Shown: positions 1,475 to 16,009 of the stretch, in pieces
How the letters are laid out: the number at the start of each line of letters is the position of its first letter
Numbering within the stretch: position 1 is the first letter of the stretch
Origin: an uncultured Acidobacteriota bacterium
GTDB taxonomy: Bacteria; Acidobacteriota; Thermoanaerobaculia; Multivoradales; UBA5704
Length of the DNA: 64,000 nucleotides
Assembly: GCA_963770895.1 (NCBI GenBank)
Contig: CAVYRF010000002.1
Coordinates: forward strand, 2,208,001-2,272,000
Direction of reading: 5' to 3'
The notes under the pieces: generated by a model
Told to the model about the DNA's origin: nothing
The model's input: the letters and a program-made list of their open reading frames with translations, nothing else
The model's database searches: none
Made by a program: the position numbers and the translations under genes

Positions 1475-2110
1475 CTTGAGGCCATCGACGGTGAGCGCCG
1501 GCCGGGCGGCGTCGCGCAGATAGAAGCGTGCCTGGCTGCCGGCGACGACGATCCGCACGTGGGTCCAGACACCGGGCTCGACGTCGCCCGGCTTCTCATA
1601 GACGCCGGGGCTCTCCTTGCGCAGGCGATCGAAATAGAAAGCCGGATAGGAGATGTACTGCACCACGTGGCTGCGGCGCACCGGGTCGTCGGCGTGCCCG
1701 TTGGTCATGCGCAGATAGATGCATTCGAAGCGCAGAGGGTCCTGCTGCACGTGGAAGGCGAGGCCGATGAAGCCGCGCGCATCGTCGGGCGCGCCGGGGA
1801 CCGGCGCGGCGGCGACGTCGAGGGTGACGGTGCCGTTCGCGAAGTCGGTGCCCTTGAGGATGGCGAGGGTGCGGCCGCCGCTGCCGCCGTGCGGCTCGTC
1901 GACCAGATGGATGGCCCGCCGGCCGCGGTAGTCGACCACCTCGCCCTTGACGCGGACCAGATCGAGGGCGGCCAGGGAGTCGAGCGGGACCGCACCCGAA
2001 GAGACCGGATGCGGTCCGCTGACGGCCATGAAGGCCAGGGCCGCCGCCGCCAGCGCCGCGAGCAGCAGCGGCGCGGGCGACGGCGGCGAGGGGATGCTCT
2101 TGCGGCTCAC
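1382..2110 (-). CDS. Secreted DUF1080-like (3-keto-disaccharide hydrolase / concanavalin-like) protein
   Basis: 3' part of ORF 1382..3484; GTG at 2110 next to upstream stop; signal peptide LLLAALAAAALAF; DFANGTVTLDV, GFIGLAF, YFTNLRV. Confidence 0.65.
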   Translation of the reverse strand: MSRKSIPSPPSPAPLLLAALAAAALAFMAVSGPHPVSSGAVPLDSLAALDLVRVKGEVVDYRGRRAIHLVDEPHGGSGGRTLAILKGTDFANGTVTLDVAAAPVPGAPDDARGFIGLAFHVQQDPLRFECIYLRMTNGHADDPVRRSHVVQYISYPAFYFDRLRKESPGVYEKPGDVEPGVWTHVRIVVAGSQARFYLRDAARPALTVDGLKLGPVHGPLGLFVDADSDGYFTNLRVTPADR

Positions 2111-2115
2111 GCGGG

Positions 2116-3744
2116 CTAGTTCGACTCCGACGCGGCAAAGAAGATGTCGGGATAGCCGGTGCGGCTGTCGGTCCAGGCGGAGAAGATGCTGGTGCCCAGC
2201 GTATTGAAGCCGATGTAGTCGCCGAAGTTGGAGAGCAGGCCGTTGCCGAACGTGTAGGTGGCCTTGCACCAGTTGCTGGTCGCCGACGAAATCTTGATCG
2301 GCTTGCCGAAGCTCTCGCCGCCGTTGGTCGACTGCACCATGTAGGTGTTGACCAGCGACACCGCCGGGCCGCTGCGGGTGGCCGCCGGACCGATGCCGAC
2401 GTTGCACTCGACCACCGTCGGATCGGGGTTCAGCTGGACCTCCTGGCTTTCGAGATATTCGACGTCGACCTCGTTGTTGTCGCCGATCGCGATCGTCGGC
2501 CAGAAGCGCTTGAGGCCGGTGGGCGGCACCGGCGGCCCGATCGGCACCGGCGCGCTCCAGGTCACGCCGCCGTTGTCCGAGAAGATGATGAAGCTTTCGA
2601 TCGAGACCAGCGACTGCTTCGTCACCGGGCTCATCACCGGCTGCACGGGCTGGTAGTAGGAGAGATAGACGCGGCCCCAGTGGCGGCCGGAGGTGAGGAC
2701 CGCGAGGCGCGGCTGGTCGTTCAACCGGTTCTTGCCGTAGCCCACCGGCGGATCCTGATAGTTGGAGTTGATCAGCGCCGCCGGCGCCGGCGAAGAGAAG
2801 GTCTCGCCGCCGTCGACGGAGCGCGAGAAGTAGATGGCCGCGTTGGTGTTGAACGTGCCGTCGAGATTGATGTGCGGGCCGTACTGCCAGGCGACGTAGA
2901 CCTCGCCGCGCGGGCCGACGGTGACCGTGGAGGCGACCTGGAGGTTGCCGGAGGCGCCGCAGTTGGGATTGTTCGGATTCTGGTTGTCGGCGCCCTCCGG
3001 GCTCACGATCGCCGGCCCGAGCCAGGTGTCGCCGCCGTCGTGGGTGCGCCAGACCTCGATCTGTCCGGCGCCGGCGTTCGGCACGTCGCAGATGCCGATG
3101 GCGTCGTCCTCGACGACGTAGGCGGTGCGGCTGCCGTCCTTGGCCGTGGCGATCGACATGCGGGTGAAGGAGGCGTTGACGCTCGGCGGGGCCAGGTTGG
3201 TCGCGTCGTCCCAGCTGAACGAGTGACCGCTGAAGTGGCCGCGGTAGACGGCGAGGCCGCGCGGCGTGCCCTTGGTCGAGTCCCACAGGCGGGAGACCTC
3301 GAAGTAGGTCTCGTCGCTGGGGTTGTGATCGGAGGACTTGGCGGGCGGCATCACGTCGACCCAGGAGTGGCCGGCGGTCGACTCGTTGCCGATCGGAGCG
3401 AGCGCGCCGCCGTCGGTCCAGCTGTGCCCGCCGTCGGTCGAGAAGGCGAAGCTGCCGACCCCCGAGGGATCGGTCGGCGTACATGCCTTGCCGGAGGGTG
3501 GGCCGCAGAGCCCCTGCAAGCTGTCGAAGCCGATGAGCAGATTGCGGCCAGAGGCGCTGGGCGCGATGGTGGGCGAGCTGCGGCCGGTGAAGTTATCGGG
3601 GAACGGCTGTTGTGGGGCGTCGACCTGGACGTTTCTCCCCACTTCAACCTCGTTGCCGGCGGCGTACGCCGGAGCGGTGAATCCCGTGGCCAGAGCCAGC
3701 GCGCACAACCCGGCTCCAACCGCAGCTCTCCTCAACTCGAACAT
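2116..3744 (-). CDS. Secreted BNR/Asp-box repeat (sialidase-like beta-propeller) protein
   Basis: AAGGAGG RBS before ATG 3744; signal peptide; Asp-boxes STDGGHSW, THDGGDTW, SVDGGETF, SDNGGVTW, STNGGESF; GDYIG. Confidence 0.8.
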   Translation of the reverse strand: MFELRRAAVGAGLCALALATGFTAPAYAAGNEVEVGRNVQVDAPQQPFPDNFTGRSSPTIAPSASGRNLLIGFDSLQGLCGPPSGKACTPTDPSGVGSFAFSTDGGHSWTDGGALAPIGNESTAGHSWVDVMPPAKSSDHNPSDETYFEVSRLWDSTKGTPRGLAVYRGHFSGHSFSWDDATNLAPPSVNASFTRMSIATAKDGSRTAYVVEDDAIGICDVPNAGAGQIEVWRTHDGGDTWLGPAIVSPEGADNQNPNNPNCGASGNLQVASTVTVGPRGEVYVAWQYGPHINLDGTFNTNAAIYFSRSVDGGETFSSPAPAALINSNYQDPPVGYGKNRLNDQPRLAVLTSGRHWGRVYLSYYQPVQPVMSPVTKQSLVSIESFIIFSDNGGVTWSAPVPIGPPVPPTGLKRFWPTIAIGDNNEVDVEYLESQEVQLNPDPTVVECNVGIGPAATRSGPAVSLVNTYMVQSTNGGESFGKPIKISSATSNWCKATYTFGNGLLSNFGDYIGFNTLGTSIFSAWTDSRTGYPDIFFAASESN

Positions 3745-4052
3745 GCCGACCTCCTTATGAGAAGGGGCGCAACAGTACGGCCCTTGGGTACCTTGATGCA
3801 TCGATTATACGCAATCGCATACCTCAAGACCACGACCTGTTATTTCTCCGGTAGAAGACGATGATGCGCATAGGTGGGGGGAGTTTGGCGGCGCGGTTGC
3901 TGCGCTGGACACTGTGCGAAGCTCGTGCTTTACTAGCTTTAAGTGAAAGTCAATAGTTCCCTCGCCGCGACCTTAACTTTAAAATACATTCATTGTTGAG
4001 CTGTCTCTGCAGAGCCGGGCGTCCCCCGGCGCGTAGAGGAAAGGTTTCCGCC

Positions 4053-5153
4053 ATGGATTTCGGCCTGATGTTTTTCGCCAGCGACAAGATCGGCCAGAGC
4101 GGCAAAGGCGCCGAGCGCTATGCGCTGCTGCTTGCGGCGTCGCGCTTTGCCGACCAGCACGGCTTCAGCGCCATCTGGACCCCCGAGCGTCACTTCCATT
4201 CCTTCGGCGGCATCTTCCCGAATCCGGCGGTCACCAGCGCCGCGCTCGCGGTGACGACCGAGCGGCTGGAGATCCGGGCGGGTAGCCTGATCTCGCCGCT
4301 GCACGATCCGATCCGCATCGCCGAGGAGTGGGCGGTGGTCGACAACCTGTCCAACGGCCGCGTCGCGATCTCCTTCGGCTCGGGATGGAACATTAACGAT
4401 TTCATTTTCTTTCCCGAGCGCTATAACACTCGCCAAGCGGTGATGCACGAGCAGATTCGCGAAGTCAAGGAAATCTGGAAAACGGGTGTGGCGAAGCGCA
4501 CCAACAGCCGCGGCGAGCCGGTCGAAATTGCGATCTATCCGCGGCCGATCCAGGCCGAGCTGCCGGTGTGGATCACCTCCTCCGGCAACGTCGACACCTT
4601 CGTCAGCGCCGGCCGCGCCGGCGCCAATCTGCTCACCCATCTGATCGGCCAGGACCTGCCGACCCTGGCGACCAAAATCGCCAGCTACCGCGCGGCGCGG
4701 CGCGAGGCGGGGCACGACCCGGCCGCCGGGCGCGTGGCCCTCATGCTCCACACCTTCCTCGGCAACGACATCGACGCCGTCAAGGAGACGGTGCGCAAGC
4801 CGTTCACCGCCTACATCGCCTCCGCCATCCGGCTGGAAGAAAAGGCCGCGAGCGCCGGCGGCGTGATGAGCGGCGGCCGCCTCATGGACCCCAGCGGCGT
4901 GCCGAGCGAAGTCTTCGACGAGCTGCTCGAGCTGACCTTCGAGCGCTACTTCCACACCGCGGCCCTCATGGGCACGCCGGCCTCCTGCCGCCAGTTCGTC
5001 GGCGAGGTGGCGCGGGCGGGCGTCGACGAAGCGGCCTGCCTCATCGACTTCCTCGGCGACGAAGACGCCATTCTCGGCGGCCTCGACCTGCTCGATCGTC
5101 TGCGCCAGGACTGCGCCGCCGACAAAACTCTTTCGCAAGGGGGAAAAACGTGA
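4053..5153 (+). CDS. MupA/Atu3671-type luciferase-like flavin-dependent monooxygenase
   Basis: MDFGLMFF, WTPERHFHSFGGIFPNP, PLHDPIRIAEEWAVVDNLSNGRV, GANLLTHLIGQ. Confidence 0.9.
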   Translation: MDFGLMFFASDKIGQSGKGAERYALLLAASRFADQHGFSAIWTPERHFHSFGGIFPNPAVTSAALAVTTERLEIRAGSLISPLHDPIRIAEEWAVVDNLSNGRVAISFGSGWNINDFIFFPERYNTRQAVMHEQIREVKEIWKTGVAKRTNSRGEPVEIAIYPRPIQAELPVWITSSGNVDTFVSAGRAGANLLTHLIGQDLPTLATKIASYRAARREAGHDPAAGRVALMLHTFLGNDIDAVKETVRKPFTAYIASAIRLEEKAASAGGVMSGGRLMDPSGVPSEVFDELLELTFERYFHTAALMGTPASCRQFVGEVARAGVDEAACLIDFLGDEDAILGGLDLLDRLRQDCAADKTLSQGGKT

Positions 5154-6520: not shown

Positions 6521-8887
6521 ATGAGCGCTACGCCGGCGCCGCGCTCTGTGCGCCCTCGTTCTTCGCGGACAGCGCGCGGCAGGCCGCTCGCCGAGCTGCT
6601 GGCGACCTGCCTGGAAGCGCCGCGCCGGATCGACCGGCGGGTGGTGGCGCGGCTGGTGCGCGAGCTGGCGCCGGGCGGCGCCGATCCGCGGCTCGCCCTG
6701 GTGCTGCTGGCTGCATTGGTCTATGCCCGGCCCGGTCTGCTGCGCGCCGGCGACACCGCGCTGCTCGACCGCCTGCAGGCGCTGTGGCACGAAGCCCTGA
6801 CAACCGACCTCGCGGCACCGCTGGGCGCCGCCGTGCGGGCGGTGGCACAGACCGCCCTCGGCCCGGCGCTGGCCGCCCGCCTGCTGTTGCCCGCGCCTGG
6901 CCCGGGTGCCTCCGGCGCCCCTGGTGGCGCGGCGGCGCCGCTCGCCGGCGAGCGGCTGGACTGGCTGCGCTTCTTGGTGACGCGGTATCCCGACTGGATC
7001 GACCTCGATGCGCTCATCCGCTGCTGCGGCGTCGCCGCCGGCATGGTCGACAGCGAACGGGTGCTGGGAGAGCTGGTCGAACCGCTTCTCCACCATGCGC
7101 CCGAATCCTTCACGCCGGCGCGCCTGGACGCGCTGCGCGCGGCGTTCGGTGCGACCGAGCGCTGGCGCTACTTCGCGGCCTTTCTTGCCACGGAGCCGGC
7201 GGCGCCGTCCGCCACCCGGCACCGCGCCGCGGCGGCGCTTGCCGGGCAGCTGCCACGGTGCGGCGAGGCGAGGCGGCTGCGCGGCGGGCCGATGCGCTTG
7301 GCGGTGGTGCAGAACGTCGTCTTCGGCCAGGGCGACGAGCTGATCCGCCTGGCGCCGCTGCTGCAGGCGTTGCTCGACGGCCTGCCGCGGCTCGCCATCA
7401 CCCTGCTGACGCCGCGCCCCTACCTGTACGACCACCCGCGCGTGCGGGTGCTGCCGATCGGCGACTCGGCCGGCGCCGCGGCGCTGGACGGCGACTTCGA
7501 CGGGCTGATCGAGCTCTGGGAGCCCGAGGTCGCCGAGCTGAACGTCGTACCGGCGCTGCACGAGCGGGCCCGGCTGCTGGCGGCGCGACGGCCGCTCCGC
7601 CTGGAGATCGCCTGCAACCTCGGCGTCAATCACTTCGCCTTCCAGAAGGTCGCCCTCGACGGCGTCGACATCGCCGCCCGCCTGGGGCTGGACCGCCGGA
7701 CGGCACGGCAGGTCTACGATCCGGTCCGCCGCTTGCTCGTCGAGCTGGGCCTGCCTTTGCGCCGCGAACACGCGCCGCCGGCGCGCTCGCTGCTGGTCGG
7801 CATTCCGTCGCCCGAGGCGGAGGCGGCCTGGCGCGCCTTGGCTCCGGCGGGCCGTCCGGTGGCGCTCGTCAGCCCATTCGGCGGCACCCGAGAGATCAAG
7901 GGATACGCCACCGACAGACTGGACATCCTGGCGGGTGAGCTGCGCCAGCTGGTGCGTCAGGGCTATCGCGTGGTGGTGCTGCCCAACGGCCAGCCCTGGG
8001 TGACGCCCGACGTCATGGCCGCCCTGGTGACGCGGCTGCCGGTCGCCGAGCGCCGCCACCTGGCGGTGGCTCCCGATCCGGCAGGCCCGCTTCGGGCACC
8101 GTTACCCGGCGTGGACGGCGAGCGGCCCGACCTGCGGCGGCCGGCCGACCGCGTCATGCGTTGGTTCAAGTACTTCGCCGCGCGTGCCGACCTGGTGGTG
8201 AGCGTCGAGGGCTGGCTGTCCCACCTCGGCTGGCAGCTCGGTCGGCCGCTGCGAGTGGTGCTGGCGGCGCAGTCGTACGACGAGGCGTGGTACCCGCCGG
8301 CGCGCGACCGCGCGCAGCGGATCGTGGACCGGATTGCAAGCTGCCCGCCGCAGCGCGGCCGAGGGCGGGCGCCCGATTTGCTTGGCGACGGCGACCGGCC
8401 GCCGCTTCCCGGCCGCGACCGCAAGCAGCTGCTGGTCGCCGCCCTCGCCGGGCTGGGCGCCGCGGGGGGAGCCGCGGTGGAGCCGCTGCTGCTGCGGGCC
8501 GCCGGCAGCGCCGACGAGGATGTGCGAGCCGCGGCGCTCGCCGCCCTGGGCAGGCTGCCGCAGCACGAGGGCATCCGCCGGACGCTGCTGGCGGCGCTGG
8601 GCGCAGCGGACCCCGAGGTGCGGGGAGCGGCGGCGGAAGGGCTCCTGGCAAGCGGGTTCGACTGCGCGCCGGAGCTTGGCGAACGCTATCGTGACGTGCT
8701 CACCGCGCACGTGGCGATCGCCGCGCGTGCCTGGGTGAGCGTCGACGATCTCGGCGCCCCGGCCATCCCGGCGCTGGCGGTCGCCGCCGCCGGGCGGGAC
8801 GACTTCATGCGCCGTGAGGCGCGCTGGCTCCTGGGCAGGCTGCTGCGGCGGCAGGTCAGGCCGTCGCGGCAGGCGGGCGGCCGGTGA
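6521..8887 (+). CDS. Glycosyltransferase family 9-like protein with C-terminal HEAT repeats
   Basis: GQGDELIRLAPLLQAL and ADLVVSVEGWLSHLGWQLGRP resemble GT9 motifs; DEDVRAAALAALG and DPEVRGAAAEGL are HEAT-like. Confidence 0.65.
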   Translation: MSATPAPRSVRPRSSRTARGRPLAELLATCLEAPRRIDRRVVARLVRELAPGGADPRLALVLLAALVYARPGLLRAGDTALLDRLQALWHEALTTDLAAPLGAAVRAVAQTALGPALAARLLLPAPGPGASGAPGGAAAPLAGERLDWLRFLVTRYPDWIDLDALIRCCGVAAGMVDSERVLGELVEPLLHHAPESFTPARLDALRAAFGATERWRYFAAFLATEPAAPSATRHRAAAALAGQLPRCGEARRLRGGPMRLAVVQNVVFGQGDELIRLAPLLQALLDGLPRLAITLLTPRPYLYDHPRVRVLPIGDSAGAAALDGDFDGLIELWEPEVAELNVVPALHERARLLAARRPLRLEIACNLGVNHFAFQKVALDGVDIAARLGLDRRTARQVYDPVRRLLVELGLPLRREHAPPARSLLVGIPSPEAEAAWRALAPAGRPVALVSPFGGTREIKGYATDRLDILAGELRQLVRQGYRVVVLPNGQPWVTPDVMAALVTRLPVAERRHLAVAPDPAGPLRAPLPGVDGERPDLRRPADRVMRWFKYFAARADLVVSVEGWLSHLGWQLGRPLRVVLAAQSYDEAWYPPARDRAQRIVDRIASCPPQRGRGRAPDLLGDGDRPPLPGRDRKQLLVAALAGLGAAGGAAVEPLLLRAAGSADEDVRAAALAALGRLPQHEGIRRTLLAALGAADPEVRGAAAEGLLASGFDCAPELGERYRDVLTAHVAIAARAWVSVDDLGAPAIPALAVAAAGRDDFMRREARWLLGRLLRRQVRPSRQAGGR

Positions 8888-10013
8888 GAAAGCGGCTGGC
8901 GGCCGGCGCACCCCCGGCCTGCGCCTCGGCCAGCTGGCGCTTGGTGCGGAACTCCAGCTCGCGGCCGCCGCCGCACGCCTCGGCGCGCCCGTAGCATGCG
9001 GCGCTCTCGGCGAAGCGCCCCAGGCGGAAGTTGCACAGCCCGGCGGCGTCCCAGGCGAGCACGCCGAAGATCCGCTCGTCGTGCGCCAGCTGCCCGGCGC
9101 AGAGCGCCGCCGGATCGACGGCGGTGAGGCGGGACAGCAGCGGCAGCGCCGCCTCCGGGCAGCCGCCGGCGAGCAGGTGGCGCGCCCGCAACCAGACCAG
9201 CGTCCACTGGTCGGGAAACGCCGCCGCGGCTTCGGCCAGCAGGCCGTCCACCGGCTCGCCCAGCTCCATCAGCACCTGCAGCATGCCGACGTAGACCAGA
9301 CTGTCGGTCGCCGCCGGCGCCCGGGCGGCGCGCACCACGGCGAGGCCGCTCTGGTAGGCGGTACGCGCCGCCTCCAGATCGCCGATGCCATGCAGCGTGC
9401 TGCCGAGGTGCCACCAGGCATAGACGTGCTCGGGCTCGGCGCGCAGCCGCGCCTCGAGCAGCGGCCGGTTGCGCCGGTGCTTGGCCGCCATGTCGCCGTC
9501 GTAGCCCAGGTGGTCGATCGCCAGGTCGCTCTCGCCGATGGTGCCGCCGCCCTGGCGCAGCAGCTCGCCGAGCGCCGGCAGGTGGCTCTCGTGGATGACG
9601 CCGCGGAAGCGCAGGCGCGGGTCGTTGCGGAACAGACGGTGCTCGCGGTAGCGGGTGAAGCCGCGCGCCGGCCGGAAGCGCACCGTGCAGGCCAGCAGGC
9701 GAGGATCGGCGAGCTGCTCGGCGAGGCGGGAGCGGCCGGCCTCGCACACCCGCTCGTCGGCATCGATGTAGAGGACCCACCTGCCGCGCACCGCGTCCAG
9801 CGCTGCGTTGCGTGCCGCGGCAAAATCCTGCCGCCACGGGAAGTCGACGACGCGGGCGCCATGGCGATGGGCGATCTCGCGGCTGCGGTCGACGGAGCCG
9901 GTGTCGGCGATCACCACCTCATCGGCGACGCCATGGAGCGACTCCAGGCAGCCGTCCAGGAAGCGCTCCTCGTCGCGCACGATCATCGCGGCGCTGAGCA
10001 GCAGCGAGCTCAC
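8856..10013 (-). CDS. Glycosyltransferase family 2 with TPR repeats (SunS-like architecture)
   Basis: MIVRDEERFLDGCL, DTGSVDRS, DFAAARN, IDADE, IHE, HLGY, followed by TPR-like helices; start approximate. Confidence 0.88.
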   Translation of the reverse strand: MSSLLLSAAMIVRDEERFLDGCLESLHGVADEVVIADTGSVDRSREIAHRHGARVVDFPWRQDFAAARNAALDAVRGRWVLYIDADERVCEAGRSRLAEQLADPRLLACTVRFRPARGFTRYREHRLFRNDPRLRFRGVIHESHLPALGELLRQGGGTIGESDLAIDHLGYDGDMAAKHRRNRPLLEARLRAEPEHVYAWWHLGSTLHGIGDLEAARTAYQSGLAVVRAARAPAATDSLVYVGMLQVLMELGEPVDGLLAEAAAAFPDQWTLVWLRARHLLAGGCPEAALPLLSRLTAVDPAALCAGQLAHDERIFGVLAWDAAGLCNFRLGRFAESAACYGRAEACGGGRELEFRTKRQLAEAQAGGAPAASRFLTGRPPAATA

Positions 10014-10041
10014 CGGCGTTTCGGGGGCAGCGTGCCTGCCA

Positions 10042-10518
10042 CTAGTACGGCACGACGTAGACGACGATCTGGAAGACCGCGCTGTCACCGCCCAGCAGGT
10101 TGGCGATGCTGGCCTGCACCGTGCCGCCGCTGCCCACCGGCGGCGTCACCAGCGACCATGCCGGATCGCCGCTCAGCTTGGACGCCGAGACAAAGGTGGT
10201 CCCGGCCGGCAGGGGATCGACGAGCGAGACCGCCGGCGCCAAGCTGCCGGTGCAGTTCTGCACCGTGATGGTGTAGGTGAGGTTGTTGCCGGCGGTCACC
10301 TCGGCGGCGGAGACGGTCTTCTGGACGTCCACCAGCGGGCCGATGTTGGCGGCGCAGAGGTTCGATCCCTGGCCGAGGGCCTGCTCGGCGAGCAGGCCGC
10401 CGAGCGTGAAGGAGGCGACGAGCGGCGTCGCCCAGGCCCCTGCCAGCATGCGCAGGATGAACTGCCGCCGATCGGGGTCGACGTGCGGGAGGATCTGGGT
10501 CAGCTCTTCGGGCGCCAT
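10042..10518 (-). CDS. Tat-signal protein with C-terminally truncated DUF11 domain (paralog B; retains Lys and Asp)
   Basis: GGAGG RBS; DRRQFI; VDVQKT...LTYTITVQN...VDPLPAGTTFVSA; ends at AVFQIVVYVVPY. Confidence 0.8.
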   Translation of the reverse strand: MAPEELTQILPHVDPDRRQFILRMLAGAWATPLVASFTLGGLLAEQALGQGSNLCAANIGPLVDVQKTVSAAEVTAGNNLTYTITVQNCTGSLAPAVSLVDPLPAGTTFVSASKLSGDPAWSLVTPPVGSGGTVQASIANLLGGDSAVFQIVVYVVPY

Positions 10519-10916
10519 GGGCGTCTGCCTCCAGAGAGTCGAGTGGCGTGCGGCGGGCGGCGCAGGTACGCCAGCGCCGTCGCGGCCAGCAGCAGGCAGG
10601 AGATGACGAGCCCCGCCGGCGACAGCGCCGGCACCTGGGCGATCGGACCGCGATCGACCTGGGTGGTCGCGGTCGCCGTGCGGTGCACGGTGACGGTCGC
10701 CTGCGCCTGGTTGTTGCCGGTCTGCGGGTCGCTCTCCGAGGCGGTGACGCCCGCCGCGGCATCGATCAGGTAGTCGAGCGTCACCGTGTTGGTGATCTCG
10801 ACCGCGGCCCTGGCGCTGGGTGCGCCCAGGGTCCACAGCACCGCCAGGCAGAGCGCTGCCGCCGAGCGCGGCAGCAGGCGGCGAAGCGGCAAACCGGCGC
10901 CTTGCGGGTCCGCCAT
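10500..10916 (-). CDS. Small Sec-exported protein with DUF11 terminal strands and IPTL-CTERM-like sorting signal
   Basis: ATG overlaps upstream TGA (TGATG); signal peptide ending ARA; ITNTVT; SESDPQTGNNQAQATVTV; VPALSPAGLVISCLLLAATALAYLRR. Confidence 0.75.
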   Translation of the reverse strand: MADPQGAGLPLRRLLPRSAAALCLAVLWTLGAPSARAAVEITNTVTLDYLIDAAAGVTASESDPQTGNNQAQATVTVHRTATATTQVDRGPIAQVPALSPAGLVISCLLLAATALAYLRRPPHATRLSGGRRPWRPKS

Positions 10917-11410
10917 CAGAGCACCGTCGCCTTGATCGCGAAGGTCGCGCTGGCGCCCTTCGCCAGGCTGTCGAAGACGCCCGCCACGGTACCGGCGAAA
11001 CCCACGGGAGGCGTGGACAGGTCGGTGACGGGGGGCCCGGTGAGCTGCGTGGCGGAAACGAAGGCGGCGCCCACGGGCACCTTCTGGTCGAAATTCACGT
11101 TGGTGGCCGTGCAGGGTCCGCAGTTGGTCACCGTCAGAGTGTAGGTGATGGTGTCGCCCGGCGACGCGGTCTGCGGCGACGCCGCCACTCCCACCGCGAC
11201 GTCGGCCATGGCCGGATTGCCGCAGATAGCGCCGGTGTTGGCGCACAGGTTGGATGCCTGCGCCCGCGCCGGTTCGACCAGCAGCCCGTCGAGCGAGAAC
11301 GAGGCGACGATCGGCGCCGCGTAGGCGGCACCCAGGAGCAGCCTGGAGAGGAACTGACGGCGGTCCGGAGCGAGCCCATCGAACCGTTGCGGTTTTGCGT
11401 CTGGCGCCAT
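10916..11410 (-). CDS. Tat-signal protein with C-terminally truncated DUF11 domain (paralog A; lacks strand-A Lys)
   Basis: DRRQFL; ADVAVGVAASP...GDTITYTLTVTNCGPCTATNV...VPVGAAFVSA; ends at ASATFAIKATVL. Confidence 0.8.
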   Translation of the reverse strand: MAPDAKPQRFDGLAPDRRQFLSRLLLGAAYAAPIVASFSLDGLLVEPARAQASNLCANTGAICGNPAMADVAVGVAASPQTASPGDTITYTLTVTNCGPCTATNVNFDQKVPVGAAFVSATQLTGPPVTDLSTPPVGFAGTVAGVFDSLAKGASATFAIKATVL

Positions 11411-11561
11411 GGATCGATCCTTTATTTCATGATCTGCGTGTCGCGAAAGGTCCAGAAATCCCTTGTTTTCTTCGCTTCCGCAGTGCCTTTGGCACAGTGC
11501 GCCGAACTTTGTGCATGGAACTTGTGCATGGTAAATATGCGGGCAATGGGGTGTCAAGCTT

Positions 11562-12305
11562 TTGCCGTACCTTAGAGCGGGCAGCTGGGATGACGCCATC
11601 TGGCGCTCGGTGGCGGACGATTATCCGGCGGTGCCTGCCCGCTTCGCGGCCGGCGACGTGGTGCTCGACCTGGGCGCGCACATCGGCGCCTTCGCCGCTC
11701 TCGCCGCCGCCCGCGGCGCACGCGTGGTGGCCTACGAAGCCAGCTGGCACAACCTGGCGCTGGCGCGTCTCAACACCGCCTCGCTGGCAGGGGTTGAAGT
11801 GCGGTGGGGCGCGGTCTGGCGCTCCGACCTGCCGCCGGCGCCCCGCTGGTACACGCCGGCGCCCAACGCCGCCAACACCGGCGGCGGCTCGGTGCTCTTC
11901 GCCGGTGCCATGGCGGTGAGCGCCGATGCCGGCGTCGACCCGTGGGGCGCCGGCACTGGCCGAGATGCCGAAGTTGAGGTGGCGCCGCGGGCGCACGCGG
12001 TGCCGGCGGTGCCGCTCGACGACATCCTGTGCGAGCTCGGCGCGGTGCGCCTGCTCAAGCTCGACGTCGAAGGTTCCGAGGTGCCGATCCTGGCCACCTC
12101 GCGCCAGCTCGCCAGGGTGGTGCAGATCACCGGCGAGGCACACGACCTGAGCGTCGGGCAGCAGGGCCGTCTGGCGCCCGACGCGCAGGTCGCGGGCGTA
12201 TCCTGCGATGCGAGCGGCCTTGCCGCAGTCCTCGGCGGCGCCGGCTTCACGGTGGCGATGACCGGTGCCGGGCCGCTGCGGCTGTTCAATGCCTGGCGGG
12301 CCTGA
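11562..12305 (+). CDS. FkbM family methyltransferase
   Basis: VLDLGAHIG SAM motif, VVAYEA, LLKLDVEGSE; TTG start uncertain. Confidence 0.85.
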   Translation: MPYLRAGSWDDAIWRSVADDYPAVPARFAAGDVVLDLGAHIGAFAALAAARGARVVAYEASWHNLALARLNTASLAGVEVRWGAVWRSDLPPAPRWYTPAPNAANTGGGSVLFAGAMAVSADAGVDPWGAGTGRDAEVEVAPRAHAVPAVPLDDILCELGAVRLLKLDVEGSEVPILATSRQLARVVQITGEAHDLSVGQQGRLAPDAQVAGVSCDASGLAAVLGGAGFTVAMTGAGPLRLFNAWRA

Positions 12306-12343
12306 CCGGCGCGCCGCCCGCCACCCGCTGCCCGCCACCCGCA

Positions 12344-13261
12344 ATGAGCACGCCCGTCATCTGCCTCTACAACCGCTTCTTCGAGCGCTGGCCGGTCGCC
12401 GCCGAGATCGGCGCCGAGATCGCTTTCCGGTTTGGCGCCGAGACTCTTGCCGGCGCCGACGCCGTGGTCTTCCATCTGCCGACGCTGGGTGTGCTTCCCG
12501 AGCGCCCCAGAGCTGCGGCGGGCGCCGGCGCCCCGCCGCAGCTCTGGGTGGCCTGGTGTCTGGAAAGCGCCGTCGTCTGTCCGCGGCTCGCCGACCCGCG
12601 GGCGATGGGGCGTTTCGATCTGACCATGACCTACCAACGATCGAGCGATGTCTGGTGGCCTTACTTCGGGCCCGGCACGGTGCCGCACCTGCTGGCGCCG
12701 CCGGGCGTCAAGGGTCCTGGCGCGCCGGTCGTGCACCTGCAATCCAACCCCTTCGATCGCAGCGGGCGCAACCGCTTCGCCGCCGGGCTGATGCGGCGCA
12801 TCAAGGTGGACTCCTACGGCACCGTCCTGCGCAACCGGACCGAGGTCGTGGCGCCCAGCTATGCGGGTCGCACCGCGGTCATGGCCCGCTACAAGTTCAC
12901 CCTGGCGCTCGAGAACTCCATCGCGCACGACTATGTGACCGACAAGTTCTTCGACGCGTTGGCGGCAGGCTCGGTGCCCGTCTACCGCGGCACCCGCGAG
13001 GTGGCCGATCTCGCGCCCGCGCCCGGCTGCTACATCGATGCGGCCGACTTCGCCTCGCCAAGCGAGCTCGCCGCGCACCTCGACCGCCTAGACCGCGACG
13101 ACGCCGCCTATGCCGCCCATCACGCCTGGCGCCATGGAGGCTTCTCGGAAGCTTTTCTCCAGCACCTCCGCCGCCTCGAACGGCCGCCCTTTGCCCGGCT
13201 GGCCGAGCACGTCCAGGACTGGATCGCGGCCGGCCGCCCGCCGCGGCAACGATCGGACTAG
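12344..13261 (+). CDS. Glycosyltransferase family 10 (alpha-1,3-fucosyltransferase-like)
   Basis: YKFTLALENSIAHDYVTDKFFDAL...VPVYRG; ADAVVFH; LTMTYQRSSDV. Confidence 0.9.
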   Translation: MSTPVICLYNRFFERWPVAAEIGAEIAFRFGAETLAGADAVVFHLPTLGVLPERPRAAAGAGAPPQLWVAWCLESAVVCPRLADPRAMGRFDLTMTYQRSSDVWWPYFGPGTVPHLLAPPGVKGPGAPVVHLQSNPFDRSGRNRFAAGLMRRIKVDSYGTVLRNRTEVVAPSYAGRTAVMARYKFTLALENSIAHDYVTDKFFDALAAGSVPVYRGTREVADLAPAPGCYIDAADFASPSELAAHLDRLDRDDAAYAAHHAWRHGGFSEAFLQHLRRLERPPFARLAEHVQDWIAAGRPPRQRSD

Positions 13262-13336: not shown

Positions 13337-13696
13337 TCAAGCCTGAGGCGCGATGCCAGAGCCGCCGGCGCCGTCGGCGGATGGCGGCGCCGCCTCGTCG
13401 ACTCCTTCGATCAATCCTTCCGCGAGGAACTGCGCCAGACATTCCGCCACCTCGTCGCGCGGCGGCTCGGGAAGATGGAAGCTCCGCGCCAGGAAGGACG
13501 GCAGGGCGGCAGCGGGCGTTGCGCCATCGCACAGCGTGAGCAAAAGAGCCGCGGTCCGGTTCAAGTAATGCACGCGGTCCCGCTCCGGGTGATAGGCGAC
13601 GAACCCGTCGGTCACCTCGCTGAGCTCGACACCTGCGGCCAGCCGCAGCCGCATCTGCCAATCGACCGCGGCGCCCCGCTCCACCGTCTCTCCCAT
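13337..13696 (-). CDS. Stand-alone PqqD-family protein / RiPP recognition element (RRE)
   Basis: About 119 aa; VHYLNRTAALLLTLCDG...EVAECLAQFLAEGLIE; AGGAG RBS. Confidence 0.85.
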   Translation of the reverse strand: MGETVERGAAVDWQMRLRLAAGVELSEVTDGFVAYHPERDRVHYLNRTAALLLTLCDGATPAAALPSFLARSFHLPEPPRDEVAECLAQFLAEGLIEGVDEAAPPSADGAGGSGIAPQA

Positions 13697-13871
13697 GCTC
13701 CCTAGTATCGGCGCCACACCGAGGCCCGTCAATCGCCGTCCATGGCCCACCGTCGGGCGCGCCGGCGCGACCTGCCGTCGCCCCGGTTTTCCCGCCTTGC
13801 CAGTGTATACTTGAAGAGGAAGGAAGCCCCAGCTAGCTTCCGGCCATGACCAACGCCTTTCAGAGTCAGAA

Positions 13872-14675
13872 ATGAGTCGACTCACTCTCCGATGGTTCAA
13901 TCTCACTCAGCGCGATGGGCAGGACCTATGTCTGAAGATCCCAATTTGCAACGTTTATGCTCCGATAATCGATCGGGCTTTTCCTGAAGTGACGCACATC
14001 GAGTGGAGGCAGGGCACGCAAGGCACCTGCTTCACCTATCTCAAGCATATAACCTCCGAAGACTTTGACTCCCTCAACGACTTCCTCCAGCTTCTCGGCG
14101 AGATTCGCTGTCTAACGCTGACCGATCACCTCGCTCCGCACTTTCAAGCCGAACTGGACGAAGCATATGCGCTAGACTTCAATTTTCAGACAGATCTCTT
14201 CCCTCTTGCCTACACGGAAATGGGCAGTCTCGAACACATTGCGAAGGAGCAACAGAATCGCGCCGCCATAGCTCAACTCAACATCCGGCTTGCCGAAGTC
14301 ATCCGCCGCCACCCCTCACTTTCCCGCGTTGAGTTCGTTGCGCCAATGCCGCCGCGCCCCTCAAAGAATTTTCATCTCCCTGTTGAAATGGCTAAGGGCA
14401 TAGGTGCGATCTTGGGGTGCCCAGTCGACCTGAGTCTCACCAAGGCGGAGCATCCGAAACTTCGAACGCTTCCCATTAGGCAGAAGGTCTCCGCGCTTGA
14501 GGAAGCCTTCTCGATTGGAGGCTCGGTTGAAGGTAAAGCCATTCTAATCGTTGACGACCTTTACCAGTCTGGCGCAAGTCTTTGGTCGCTCGCCAGGTTT
14601 TTGAAGTCCCGCGGAGCCCGACTAGTCTATGGACTGGCATGCGTCAAGTCGTGGAGTGATACCGACAACCAATGA
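13872..14675 (+). CDS. Phosphoribosyltransferase-domain protein (ShosT/ComF-like)
   Basis: PRPP-binding motif ILIVDDLYQSGASL; visibly lower GC than flanks. Confidence 0.8.
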   Translation: MSRLTLRWFNLTQRDGQDLCLKIPICNVYAPIIDRAFPEVTHIEWRQGTQGTCFTYLKHITSEDFDSLNDFLQLLGEIRCLTLTDHLAPHFQAELDEAYALDFNFQTDLFPLAYTEMGSLEHIAKEQQNRAAIAQLNIRLAEVIRRHPSLSRVEFVAPMPPRPSKNFHLPVEMAKGIGAILGCPVDLSLTKAEHPKLRTLPIRQKVSALEEAFSIGGSVEGKAILIVDDLYQSGASLWSLARFLKSRGARLVYGLACVKSWSDTDNQ

Positions 14676-15646
14676 TGCAGCAAACTCAGTCCATTGAGTT
14701 CGTAGCTTTCTGTCTTCAGGCTGCGCCTGGAGTAGGCGCATCCACGCTTCGCATGGTTCTGAAACGCCTCGCTCAAGAACGGCTCGCACCAGAAGCCCTC
14801 TTCCAACTCGACGACCACGACTTGCTGTTGCGCTTCGGGCTCAAGCCCTCCGCTGTCGCTGCGCTCCGAGAGCCTTGCGACGAAACGCTGGAAACCTGGC
14901 AACGCCTCAAAGCGGAATCTGTGAAGATCCTTGTTTGGGGCCAGGCTGCCTACCCAACGCGGCTCTATACCCTCCTTCGCGACACTGCCCCTCCCTTGCT
15001 TTTTCTCGTCGGCGGGCTAGACAGTTTCGGACGTCCAGCAGTGGGCTTCTGCGGCTCCAGGAGGGCGTCTGAAAAGGGGTTGCGAGTAGCGCGCGATTGT
15101 GCGCATCTGCTGGCGAAACAACAAATCAATGTCGTCAGTGGTTACGCTCATGGCGTTGATCTCGCCGCGCATCGCGCAGCTTTGGAGGCGGGAGGTACTA
15201 CGACCGTCGTGTTGCCCGAGGGTATTCTTCACTTCCGGGTCAAGAGCGAAATTCGCGACTTGCTGAGCGCAGGAGACTTTTCGCGCATCGCCGTTGTGTC
15301 CGAGTTCCCTCCTGGCTTGCCGTGGCGGGCTCACAATGCAATGGCACGCAATCGTACGATCTGTGGCCTTTCACACGCGTTGGTCGTAATAGAATCAGGT
15401 CCGGATGGAGGCACATTCGAAGCAGGCAAAGCCGCACTTAAACTCGGTGAGCCTCTGTTCTGTATCGAATATGCCGAGACACCTCCAGAAGCGGCAGGTA
15501 ATCCGTACTTCTTGAAACATGGAGCCTTCAGTCTGAGGCGCGCGCCGAATGGCGAGCCTAACCTCTCCAGGCTCATGTCTGTCGTACGTGAGGGCGGCAG
15601 GAACTTTGGACAACCGCACCAGCAGGAGCTACTCCTGCACGAGTAA
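14672..15646 (+). CDS. DprA/Smf (SLOG) family protein (ShosA-like)
   Basis: YPTRL...PPLLF, GFCGSRRAS, VVSGYAHGVDLAAH, SEFPP, ARNRTI; ATGA overlap with the PRTase stop. Confidence 0.88.
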   Translation: MMQQTQSIEFVAFCLQAAPGVGASTLRMVLKRLAQERLAPEALFQLDDHDLLLRFGLKPSAVAALREPCDETLETWQRLKAESVKILVWGQAAYPTRLYTLLRDTAPPLLFLVGGLDSFGRPAVGFCGSRRASEKGLRVARDCAHLLAKQQINVVSGYAHGVDLAAHRAALEAGGTTTVVLPEGILHFRVKSEIRDLLSAGDFSRIAVVSEFPPGLPWRAHNAMARNRTICGLSHALVVIESGPDGGTFEAGKAALKLGEPLFCIEYAETPPEAAGNPYFLKHGAFSLRRAPNGEPNLSRLMSVVREGGRNFGQPHQQELLLHE

Positions 15647-15833
15647 TCAGGCTATTTCTGTAAATACCGCAATAAATTAAAACAGCTGATTCTGCGTGGC
15701 GGGGATCCGGCCGAGCTGCGCCTCTGGTTCCTCCCTTGAAGGCGCTTCATGCTCCAACGGCCCCAAAGTAAAGCGCGGCTCACGGGCTGTGCTTGGCCCG
15801 TCTGTATAAACTACGTAATCTGTGGTGTTTAGA

Positions 15834-15910
15834 TGGTGCGCCCAAGAGGATTCGAACCTCTGACCTACAGCTCCGGAGGCTGTCGCTCTATCCAGCTGAG
15901 CTATGGGCGC
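15834..15910 (-). tRNA. tRNA-Arg(CCG)
   Basis: Reverse complement GCGCCCATAGCTCAG...ACAGC CTCCGGA GCTGT...GGTTCGAATCC...GGGCGCACCA. Confidence 0.97.
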
Positions 15911-15933
15911 GGGGGGTGGGTTTTCAAGGGAGG

Positions 15934-16009
15934 TGGCCTGCCTGGAGGGATTCGAACCCCCGACCCGCGGCTTAGAAGGCCGCCGCTCTATCCACTGAGC
16001 TACAGGCAG
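15934..16009 (-). tRNA. tRNA-Arg(TCT)
   Basis: Reverse complement CTGCCTGTAGCTCAG...GCGGC CTTCTAA GCCGC...GGTTCGAATCC...CAGGCAGGCCA. Confidence 0.97.

Follow-up and report, generated by a model that had tools for sequence, protein, structure and literature searches.

The window analysed here is a 64,000-nucleotide stretch of the genome of a soil bacterium, an uncultured member of the Acidobacteriota (GCA_963770895.1, contig CAVYRF010000002.1, positions 2,208,001 to 2,272,000), in which three translationally coupled minus-strand genes encode the front and the back of one surface-protein domain as separate polypeptides, each with its own start and putative export signal. The two front pieces are referred to below as catchers A and B, and the short back piece, which carries a putative membrane anchor, as the tag. 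These genes and their neighbors are as follows:

10916..11410, minus strand: catcher A (164 aa), with an RRxFL leader (R17 R18), an AxA site and the SNLC motif, then the front seven strands of a DUF11/CLIPPER domain that lacks the first-strand Lys (Val) and the Asp (Gln).
10500..10916, minus strand: tag (138 aa), with a hydrophobic Sec-type signal, a mature N-terminus at the strand VEITNTVTL (invariant Asn43, codon 10788-10790), a loop with SDPQTGNN, the last strand QATVTV, a linker, the VPALS motif, a TM helix and an Arg-rich tail (IPTL-CTERM-like).
10042..10518, minus strand: catcher B (158 aa), with the same leader and SNLC motif and the front seven strands of DUF11/CLIPPER, including Lys67 (codon 10318-10320) and Asp101 (codon 10216-10218).
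8856..10088, minus strand: GT2 glycosyltransferase with a TPR C-terminal half, given as the listed ORF, although comparison with homologues suggests that the start is the in-frame GTG at 10013; last gene of the likely A-tag-B-GT operon.
11528..11557, minus strand: the only sigma-70-like promoter match in 8600-11800 (TTGACA-18-TACCAT, 10 of 12), 118 nt upstream of the ATG of A; a consensus match only, with 1 found against 0.1 expected in shuffles.
11562..12305, plus strand: FkbM-family methyltransferase, divergent from A, and also divergent from the catcher in the locus of the G029 genome.
12029..13261, plus strand: GT10 (fucosyltransferase-family) glycosyltransferase, given as the listed ORF, the true start probably being later.
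13337..13906, minus strand: PqqD-family peptide-chaperone-like protein (RRE type), given as the listed ORF, although comparison with homologues suggests that the start is Met71 at 13696.

The TGA of A shares one base with the ATG of the tag, while the tag and B overlap by 19 nt, with a GGAGG 9 nt before the ATG of B. Catcher A ends in ASATFAIKATVL and catcher B in DSAVFQIVVYVVPY, whereas the tag contains EITNTVTLDY and SESDPQTGNNQAQATVTV. In Pfam profile searches, A matches PF01345 at positions 1-84 of 114 (E 1e-14, 55.3 bits) and B at positions 3-84 of 114 (E 5.8e-13, 49.6 bits), both above the cut-off of 24.6 bits, and the two proteins score 51.7 and 55.6 bits against TIGR01451, which has a cut-off of 24. 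The tag matches positions 65-114 of 114, though only weakly (E 6.9e-4, 20.4 bits, below the cut-off). A profile-profile comparison (hhalign) with 11 intact repeats from relatives shows the same division, with the catchers covering columns 1-94 of 136 (E 1.6e-28) and the tags covering columns 93-122 (E 0.0017, probability only 15%). Neither catcher therefore holds the whole domain of seven to nine strands, as the Asn-bearing strand and the last strand lie on the tag, whose motif (I/V)TNTATVTA is nearly the same as the LSNTATVTS of intact repeats. The observation in the original prediction, that the front and back of a DUF11 domain are encoded here by separate genes, is confirmed, and the sequences it quotes and its residue coordinates for the Lys, the Asp and the Asn are correct.

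The split is conserved. In 7 of 7 loci where both genes can be read (the window, L002, L036, L037, L038, L039 and L046), which apart from the window comprise a paralogous locus in the same genome, four Acidobacteriota MAGs and a metagenome contig, a catcher is followed directly by a tag and the run of genes ends with GT2-TPR. The usual layout is one catcher to one tag, found in 5 of 7 loci, while two catchers with one tag occur in the window and in L046. Of 22 aligned catcher rows, 18 end 1-4 residues after strand 7. Of the other four, three are incomplete (the catcher of a further locus, L047, is cut by its contig end, the row P0006 breaks off earlier, and the A copy of L046 lacks its N-terminus but ends the same way), and the row P0007 ends five residues after the strand. 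The Asn is kept in 7 of 7 aligned tags, which are only 30-41% identical to the tag of the window, and in 11 of 11 database tag clusters, some of which may be the same genes as the loci. At 12 loci the same leader sits on other cargo, and no tag was seen in the ORF lists that were read for these loci, without a formal search.

An assembly error can also be set aside, a possibility that the original prediction had named as one that would refute it. A 10.3-kb contig from a third study spans the locus at about 95% identity, and its only two indels lie outside the reading frames of the three genes. Contigs from a second study match at 99% or more, although they cover the stretch only in pieces and their gaps carry no meaning. 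The region evolves fast: among the 40 of 74 differences that were listed for the 95% relative, 9, 12 and 5 change residues in B, the tag and A, respectively, and one of these is N53D, in the otherwise invariant Asn of B.

The N-terminus of the catchers was described in the original prediction as a Tat signal. It fits the RRxFL motif, with DRRQF(L/I) invariant in 21 of 21 rows that have the column, and ARA, ALG or AMA precede Q-x-SN. Its h-region is moderately hydrophobic, with Kyte-Doolittle scores of 1.87-2.08 (n=7) against 2.29-3.40 (n=6) for the Sec-type signals of the tags, and TatC is present in the genome. The curated Tat-signal model TIGR01409, however, does not recognize the leaders, as none of its 26 matches at E up to 10 in the genome lies in the three catcher genes and a search of the proteins at E up to 10 gave no hit. 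The leader is nearly invariant and is shared with 57-62 aa peptides that sit next to PqqD-like and SunS-like GT2-TPR genes in other phyla, which suggests that it is more than a signal peptide and is probably also a recognition leader for a modification system not noticed in the original prediction. Counterparts of the PqqD-family gene lie directly upstream of the catcher in L002, L037, L038, L039 and L047. The window's PqqD-like protein scores 29.4 bits against PF05402 (cut-off 23.4) but falls short of the narrower TIGR04353 HPr-rel-A type (28.4 against 35). The GT2-TPR enzyme has the SunS peptide S-glycosyltransferase family (TIGR04195) as its nearest NCBIfam, but at 57.6 bits against a cut-off of 350 and over the GT-A half only, while Pfam finds Glycos_transf_2 plus TPR, such that it works like SunS at most and is not a member of that family.

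The putative anchor of the window's tag consists of VPALS, a TM helix (residues 100-119 in the AF2 model) and RR. It scores 17.8 bits against the IPTL-CTERM model (TIGR04174) on the protein, below the cut-off of 20.5, and 20.9 bits in a six-frame search of the genome, just over it, while the L037 tag scores 27 bits and PF18203 is precomputed on 9 of 11 tag clusters. In all, 12 IPTL-CTERM matches in the genome are over the cut-off, including both tags.

The tag ectodomain (residues 35-94) has pLDDT below 50 and no strands when modelled alone. Residues 61-158 of catcher B are predicted to fold as seven strands with pLDDT 84-93, and the best PDB match of this model by Foldseek is the CLIPPER domain 9IFR (E 1.2e-4, TM 0.62 by target length, 99 of 123 columns), in agreement with a CnaA-like fold. 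AF2 folds truncated domains confidently as well, so this result cannot tell whether a seven-strand form is stable on its own. Complex prediction of B(51-158) with tag(37-95) gave ipSAE values of 0.59, 0.60 and 0.58 against 0.00 for the best of 3 controls, with runs agreeing in at least 83% of contacts and a partner pLDDT of at least 68. In the same prediction the pLDDT of the tag was 36 beside an unrelated chain, against 68-70 beside B. This amounts to weak support only: the mark was reached by 58 of 80 solved complexes and 2 of 110 mismatched pairs, but at 0.60 or under by only 7 of those 80 and by both mismatches that passed, and halves of a split domain can also pass through likeness to intact solved Ig-like domains. 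The prediction returned no interface, and thus neither strand insertion nor Lys/Asp/Asn geometry was seen.

DUF11, now CLIPPER, is an experimentally demonstrated Lys/Asp/Asn isopeptide domain, the bond being present in the crystal structure 9IFR (PMC12617251). B and the tag together carry the whole triad, and B, its counterpart in L046 (B'), the L002 catcher (C) and the L036 catcher keep Lys and Asp at the columns that carry them in intact repeats. In the profile alignment, the Lys column of the catchers pairs with a Lys of 9IFR and the Asp column with an Asp of 9IFR, though the residue count is one off from the Asp748 of the paper and the exact equivalence of the Asp is thus only putative. 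Across the family, the Lys is present in 15 of 22 catcher rows, with Ser or Ala in five and Val in two, and the Asp in 19 of 21, being absent in both A-type catchers. The rows without the Lys include five single-catcher relatives.

Taken together, these data are best read as a conserved two-part surface-display module built from a naturally split CLIPPER domain, a reading held to be somewhat more likely than not. What the sequences themselves establish is that each catcher carries strands 1-7 of the domain and stops in the loop before the Asn-bearing strand, and that the tag gene that follows encodes a Sec-type signal, after whose cleavage the mature N-terminus starts 2-12 residues before that strand (3-4 residues in four of the seven aligned tags, the window's included), then the last strand, a linker and an IPTL-CTERM-like membrane anchor. 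The remainder, including binding, covalency, export, modification and, in the absence of any RNA run found for the locus, expression, is inferred. In this view, after separate export the two strands of the tag would insert into the open sandwich of a catcher, as donor-strand complementation by a hairpin, and thereby tether the catcher to the envelope. Where the catcher keeps the first-strand Lys and the Asp, as in B, a spontaneous Lys67-Asn43 isopeptide may lock the pair, whereas where they are missing, as in A, the link can only be non-covalent. Before export, the catchers would be handled in the cytoplasm: their RRxFL...AP(F/L)VASF leader is probably bound by the PqqD-like chaperone, and the SunS-like GT2-TPR enzyme probably modifies the catchers, perhaps at the conserved Asn-x-Cys just after the leader, while the FkbM and GT10 enzymes may extend the glycan. 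The leader would then double as a Tat-type export signal, which would explain why the cargo and its Sec-inserted anchor are made as separate polypeptides. Tat export usually demands a folded substrate, however, which sits awkwardly with an incomplete fold, and the model leaves unexplained how one tag serves two catchers. The possibility that the tags of two-catcher loci hold two sets of strands was considered and dropped, as ectodomain length does not track catcher number and L036, with one catcher, has the longest.

The interpretation in the original prediction, that the fold is completed in trans by a SpyTag/SpyCatcher-like pair of Tat-exported catchers and an anchored tag, possibly with a covalent link for B, is thus only partly supported. 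Its claims of a clean split at the loop before the Asn-bearing strand, of separate starts and export signals, of missing strands plus an IPTL-CTERM-like anchor on the tag and of a layout that is not a frameshifted pseudogene hold. A bond through Lys67 of B, Asn43 of the tag and Asp101, fixing B irreversibly to the anchor, remains possible but doubtful. It cannot form with A, and catchers without the Lys or the Asp still keep their tags, so a covalent link cannot be the conserved mechanism of the family. The Asn, moreover, is invariant in intact repeats for structural reasons as well. The fullest version of this idea is likewise unlikely on present evidence: a natural SpyTag/SpyCatcher in which a cytoplasmically modified catcher, exported by its twin-arginine-like leader, is captured in the envelope by the Sec-exported, IPTL-CTERM-anchored tag, whose hairpin completes the fold, and, in the Lys/Asp-bearing catchers, joined by an autocatalytic intermolecular isopeptide, with the leader, read by a PqqD-like RRE and a SunS-like GT2-TPR enzyme, defining an undescribed leader-guided protein and peptide glycosylation system spanning Acidobacteriota and Alphaproteobacteria.

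About as tentative is the alternative that an ancestral DUF11-IPTL-CTERM gene split without reunion, leaving a self-sufficient, exported and possibly glycosylated seven-strand catcher and an independent small anchored peptide that share an operon only by descent. This is favored by the confident model of the catcher alone, by the weak complex support, by the existence of compact seven-strand relatives (DUF7507; PMC12617251) and by another small IPTL-CTERM protein in the genome that is unrelated to DUF11. Those seven-strand relatives still contain their own Asn strand, though, and the short tags have only about 30-45 mature residues before the anchor, with no predicted fold, and yet keep the strand motif and its Asn, stay adjacent to a catcher in 7 of 7 loci and were not seen, in the ORF lists that were read, with the non-DUF11 cargo carrying the same leader. 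A filament in which catchers polymerize by donor-strand exchange on the anchored tag as base subunit, resembling the LPxTG base ElrB of the enterococcal Elr pilus or the archaeal threads, is very unlikely. Two catchers do sit with one tag in the window and in L046, the mature catchers have a 12-17 residue N-terminal extension that is beta-prone in the C-type (…FTSNVTVPNTS…), and there are precedents for anchored base subunits and for donor-strand complementation combined with isopeptides and glycans (10.64898/2026.10.17.759780; PMC9715654). The missing piece, however, is a two-strand hairpin of about 35 residues that this extension is too short to supply, the SN motif of the extension is shared with short peptides that have no DUF11 partner and so belongs to the leader system, five of 7 loci have a single catcher, and no chaperone or usher candidate was seen, without a dedicated search. 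A frameshifted or mis-assembled single gene is refuted for practical purposes: although the three pieces add up to familiar parts of DUF11-IPTL-CTERM proteins of the same clade, a roughly 37-residue signal peptide lies between the two halves, so no frameshift could join them, and the layout recurs in the loci and contigs described above.

Among described systems, the intramolecular isopeptide domain of 9IFR (PMC12617251) is of the same fold family, with the Lys and Asp in the front half and the Asn in the penultimate strand, and relatives of the same clade carry tandem intact copies ending in IPTL-CTERM. There all strands and the whole triad lie in one chain, whereas here the last two strands and the Asn are on a second polypeptide and some catchers have lost the Lys or the Asp. 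SpyTag/SpyCatcher is an engineered split of the CnaB2 domain of FbaB, in which a large piece with the Lys and the acidic residue is completed by a short peptide with the reactive Asn or Asp. That pair is man-made, CnaB-type and splits off one strand, while the present split is natural, CnaA-like by prediction and removes a two-strand hairpin, with a putative export signal on each part and a sorting anchor on the tag, any covalency being unproven. In chaperone-usher pili, archaeal threads (PMC9715654) and the Elr pilus (10.64898/2026.10.17.759780), an incomplete Ig-like fold is completed by one or more strands from another polypeptide; threads add intermolecular isopeptides and heavy glycosylation, and Elr has a sorting-signal-bearing base subunit. 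Those systems build polymers from one N-terminal donor strand and need chaperones, whereas here the donor would be a C-terminally anchored mini-protein giving two strands, no polymer, chaperone or usher is evident, and the fold family is different. SunS-type glycocin maturation and RRE (PqqD)-guided RiPP pathways share a GT2 enzyme with a TPR half whose best NCBIfam match is SunS and a PqqD-family protein next to a substrate with a strongly conserved leader, and sister cassettes in other phyla have 57-62 aa precursor-like peptides and HprK-like kinases. The scores here are far below the SunS and HPr-rel-A equivalog cut-offs, the substrate would be a 158-164 aa domain, the leader looks like a twin-arginine signal and modification is only inferred.

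Literature searches on natural splitting, isopeptides and strand complementation, and on DUF11 with isopeptides, gave no report of a natural split CLIPPER, supplementary material such as Table S2 of PMC12617251, on DUF11 copies without the triad, lying outside their reach. Searches on SunS, PqqD and twin-arginine signals, and on HPr kinase, PqqD, glycosyltransferases and leader peptides, gave nothing on this cassette, and the term IPTL-CTERM occurs in one paper of the literature searched. A natural, conserved split of an isopeptide domain into separately exported genes would show that cells use the trick devised by engineers to fasten a cargo to an anchor after export. It would also give new orthogonal tag/catcher pairs from the CnaA-like fold, with a two-strand tag and in both covalent and non-covalent natural variants, and give the orphan IPTL-CTERM sorting signal a defined small client. 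The shared leader, PqqD-like protein and GT2-TPR enzyme point to a leader-guided modification route that acts on whole domains as well as on short peptides.

Unsplit forms were also sought. Searches of representative proteins with the catcher profile gave at least 150 giant multi-repeat DUF11 proteins and say nothing about unsplit leader-bearing forms. A search for longer homologous proteins gave 429 hits, of which at least 120 are multi-repeat proteins that mostly cover only the DUF11 part of the query (34-69%), while 15 cover 72-91%; outside these 15, no fused leader-DUF11-tag form was recognized, which is weak evidence of absence. Of the IPTL-CTERM frames in the genome itself, the two shortest were examined for an unsplit single-domain form and neither is DUF11. 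Across the class, leader-bearing catchers were found in 2 of 301 genomes sampled (the genome of the window and G029), the other 8 genomes with hits, including one unpublished genome on which no claim rests, matching on DUF11 only. In the protein databases, tag clusters (11) and full-length catcher clusters (about 13) are similarly rare.

The minus strand of 10042-11410 holds three overlapping genes, as the original prediction had described, followed by a fourth:
10916-11410, minus strand: catcher A, 164 aa.
10500-10916, minus strand: the tag, 138 aa.
10042-10518, minus strand: catcher B, 158 aa.
Downstream of B after about 28 nt, minus strand: a GT2-TPR gene, whose start is probably the GTG at 10013, as inferred from homologues.

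The TGA of A shares one base with the ATG of the tag, while the tag and B overlap by 19 nt, with a GGAGG located 9 nt before the ATG of B. The only sigma-70-like match in 8600-11800 lies 118 nt upstream of A (1 found against 0.1 expected), though this is a consensus match only, and the four genes look like one operon. A Pfam search places A on DUF11 positions 1-84 of 114 (E 1e-14) and B on positions 3-84 (E 5.8e-13), whereas the tag is placed on positions 65-114 with an E value of 6.9e-4, below the cut-off. The Lys, Asp and Asn codons lie where the original prediction had placed them, and its observation of a domain divided among these genes is upheld.

Relatives of the same class carry long proteins with tandem intact DUF11 repeats of about 130 residues, one of which (at locus L019) ends in an IPTL-CTERM motif. 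When compared with an alignment of 11 such repeats, the catcher family (14 sequences) matches columns 1-94 of 136 (E 1.6e-28) and the tag family (7 sequences) matches columns 93-122 (E 0.0017, probability 15%). The tags therefore cover the complementary stretch, although the statistics are weak because the piece is short. By eye, the (I/V)TNTATVTA of the tags is almost the LSNTATVTS of the intact repeats. The catchers end 1-4 residues after the strand ...FQLVVHV, and, following the predicted AxA cleavage, the mature tags begin 2-12 residues before the Asn strand, a distance that is 3-4 residues in four of the seven aligned tags, including that of the window. The split thus lies at a loop. Two tags, L036 4501-4884 (from genome G029) and P0308, carry a 30-40 residue insertion between the Asn strand and the last strand, showing that the tag loop tolerates large additions. 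AF2 predicts seven strands for B residues 61-158 (pLDDT 84-93), and the best PDB match to this model is the CLIPPER domain 9IFR (E 1.2e-4, 99 of 123 columns).

The arrangement is conserved, and is neither a pseudogene nor an assembly error. The same genome has a second, paralogous locus on another contig (L002, G000:C1:1121555-1125031), where positions 959-3415 encode a PqqD-like protein, catcher C (159 aa, with the Lys and the Asp), an 88-aa tag that passes the IPTL-CTERM cut-off (26.1 bits), and a GT2-TPR enzyme. The same order is found in genome G029 (locus L036, identical to L017), in three further Acidobacteriota or Thermoanaerobaculia MAGs (L037-L039), and in a metagenome contig (L046) that has A', tag', B' and GT2-TPR, with B' 80% identical to B. 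Together with the window, these amount to 7 of 7 loci in which both genes can be read; one further locus, L047, is cut by its contig end inside the catcher. A 10.3-kb contig from a different study (X5) also spans the locus at about 95% identity, and its only two indels lie just outside the frames. The family is nevertheless rare, with about 13 full-length catcher clusters and 11 tag clusters among 5.8 billion proteins. Leader-bearing catchers were found in 2 of 301 genomes sampled from the class, a count that includes one unpublished genome, G204, which had a DUF11-only match.

Several lines of evidence suggest that the tag completes the catcher in trans. The short tags have only about 30-45 mature residues before the anchor, and AF2 gives the ectodomain of the window's tag (35-94) a pLDDT below 50 and no strands, with only the signal helix and the TM helix being confident. 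Even so, the strand motif with its Asn is kept in 7 of 7 aligned tags and in 11 of 11 database clusters. The tag occurs next to DUF11-type cargo, and was not seen, on reading by eye, in the 12 loci where the same leader sits on other cargo. Prediction of a complex between B(51-158) and tag(37-95), the one pairing modelled, gave ipSAE scores of 0.59, 0.60 and 0.58, against 0.00 for the best of three controls, which the method ranks as weak support. The mark was reached by 58 of 80 solved complexes and by 2 of 110 mismatched pairs, but at 0.60 or under it was reached by only 7 of those 80 and by both mismatches that passed. The runs agree in at least 83% of contacts with a partner pLDDT of at least 68, while in the controls the pLDDT of the tag fell to 36 beside an unrelated chain. 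These scores came without an interface, and the two halves of a split domain can also pass by likeness to intact solved Ig-like domains. Likewise, the confident AF2 model of the catcher alone does not show that a seven-strand form is stable. On balance, trans completion, whether non-covalent or covalent, is considered somewhat more likely than not, though the presence of one tag beside two catchers in the window and in L046 is not explained by it.

DUF11 has been renamed CLIPPER and shown by crystallography to hold a Lys715-Asp748-Asn806 isopeptide (PMC12617251), and the original prediction proposed that an equivalent bond might link catcher B and the tag. Among 22 catcher rows, of which some are near-duplicates and three are incomplete, the Lys column holds K in 15, S or A in 5 and V in 2, while the Asp column holds D in 19 of 21 and Q in the two A-type catchers. 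B, B', C and the L036 catcher have the full set, whereas A and A' have neither residue, and the catchers of L037-L039, P0014 and P0015 lack the Lys but keep their tags. A covalent bond is therefore possible for B, though it remains a doubtful proposition on present evidence, is impossible for A, and is not the conserved core of the system. The residue count in a profile alignment to 9IFR fits Lys715 and Asn806 but is one off for Asp748, leaving the equivalence of the Asp tentative. The interpretation offered in the original prediction is thus only partly supported.

The first ~50 residues of the catchers are far more conserved than an ordinary signal peptide. R17, R18, F20, P32, V34, A35, S36 and F37 are invariant in the 14 aligned catchers, as are N53 and C55 after the AxA site and a second Cys at C89. 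In the X5 contig, however, the otherwise invariant Asn53 of the SNLC motif of B (window position 10362) reads Asp, and, among 40 of the 74 differences, most of those in A, the tag and B change residues. The genes thus change fast between close strains, as many surface proteins do. The motif DRRQF(L/I) fits the twin-arginine consensus, the h-region is less hydrophobic than the signals of the tags, and TatC is present in the genome, but the TIGR01409 Tat-signal model does not find these leaders.

The same leader heads other cargo in other phyla. In a Geminicoccaceae MAG (L044), it is found on a 279-aa non-DUF11 protein with no Pfam or NCBIfam match (3851-4690, plus strand), which lies between a PqqD-like gene and a GT2-TPR gene with no tag gene. 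In 11 alphaproteobacteria-like loci from metagenome and MAG contigs (L045, L049/L050, L052, L055-L060, L062), the leader (KRQF...APLVASFAM) heads one to three tandem 57-62 aa peptides (…KRQFIGKLIGTTAFVAPLVASFAM…), followed by an S/T/N-rich tail with SN. The leader system therefore serves several cargo types. Where the contig reaches far enough, these loci also hold a PqqD-like gene, a GT2-TPR gene and often HprK-like P-loop kinases. NCBIfam has no model for the short peptides, and their protein atlas clusters (65-73 members) are unnamed; the nearest named clusters are Tat-signal proteins at 0.86-0.88, which is a lead only.

In the window, the best NCBIfam match of the GT2-TPR enzyme is the SunS peptide S-glycosyltransferase family (E 1e-15), although its 57.6 bits fall far below the cut-off of 350. 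The PqqD-like protein passes the PqqD cut-off of Pfam, and an FkbM methyltransferase and a GT10 glycosyltransferase are encoded between the two. These neighbours lead to the hypothesis that the leader is a recognition sequence for the PqqD-like chaperone and that the catchers are modified in the cytoplasm, probably by glycosylation. The leader may also serve for Tat-type export, which would explain why the cargo and its Sec-inserted IPTL-CTERM anchor are separate polypeptides. The analysis thus establishes a split architecture that is solid and surprising, while binding of the tag, and above all the covalent bond, as well as leader recognition, modification and the export route, are inferences.

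The proposed assembly would work like donor-strand complementation, as in chaperone-usher pili, in archaeal threads with added isopeptides and glycans (PMC9715654), and in the Elr pilus with its anchored base subunit (bioRxiv 10.64898/2026.10.17.759780). It would also work like the SpyTag/SpyCatcher pair, which is an engineered one. It differs from the systems named here in that the fold is CnaA-like CLIPPER, the presumed donor is a two-strand hairpin, this donor is a mini-protein with a C-terminal sorting anchor, each part has its own export signal, and the module is embedded in a leader, PqqD-like and GT2-TPR cassette. Literature searches, which did not extend to subscription journals or supplements, found no report of a natural split CLIPPER or of this cassette.

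The genome has 12 IPTL-CTERM matches over the cut-off, including both tags, and most of these are on very large proteins; the tag of the window is only just over the cut-off of 20.5 in this six-frame search (20.9 bits) and below it when searched as a protein (17.8 bits). No sorting enzyme is known for this signal, and the term occurs in one paper of the literature searched. A 143-aa Cys-rich protein with an IPTL-CTERM end and no DUF11 part is encoded about 49 kb before the window (L075 597-1028, minus strand, on contig G000:C2), indicating that small clients of this sorting signal exist beside the giant ones.

Two further features lie near these genes in the window:
6521-8887, plus strand: a 788-aa protein convergent with the GT2-TPR gene, in which only HEAT repeats were recognised, near its C-terminus.
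13872-15646, plus strand: a low-GC island (55-62% against 69-79% around it, in a GC profile of 13600-16000) with a phosphoribosyltransferase-like gene (13872-14675) overlapping a DprA/SLOG-family gene (14672-15646).

The low-GC island sits between the PqqD-like gene and an NtrC-type regulator and may be an inserted two-gene module.
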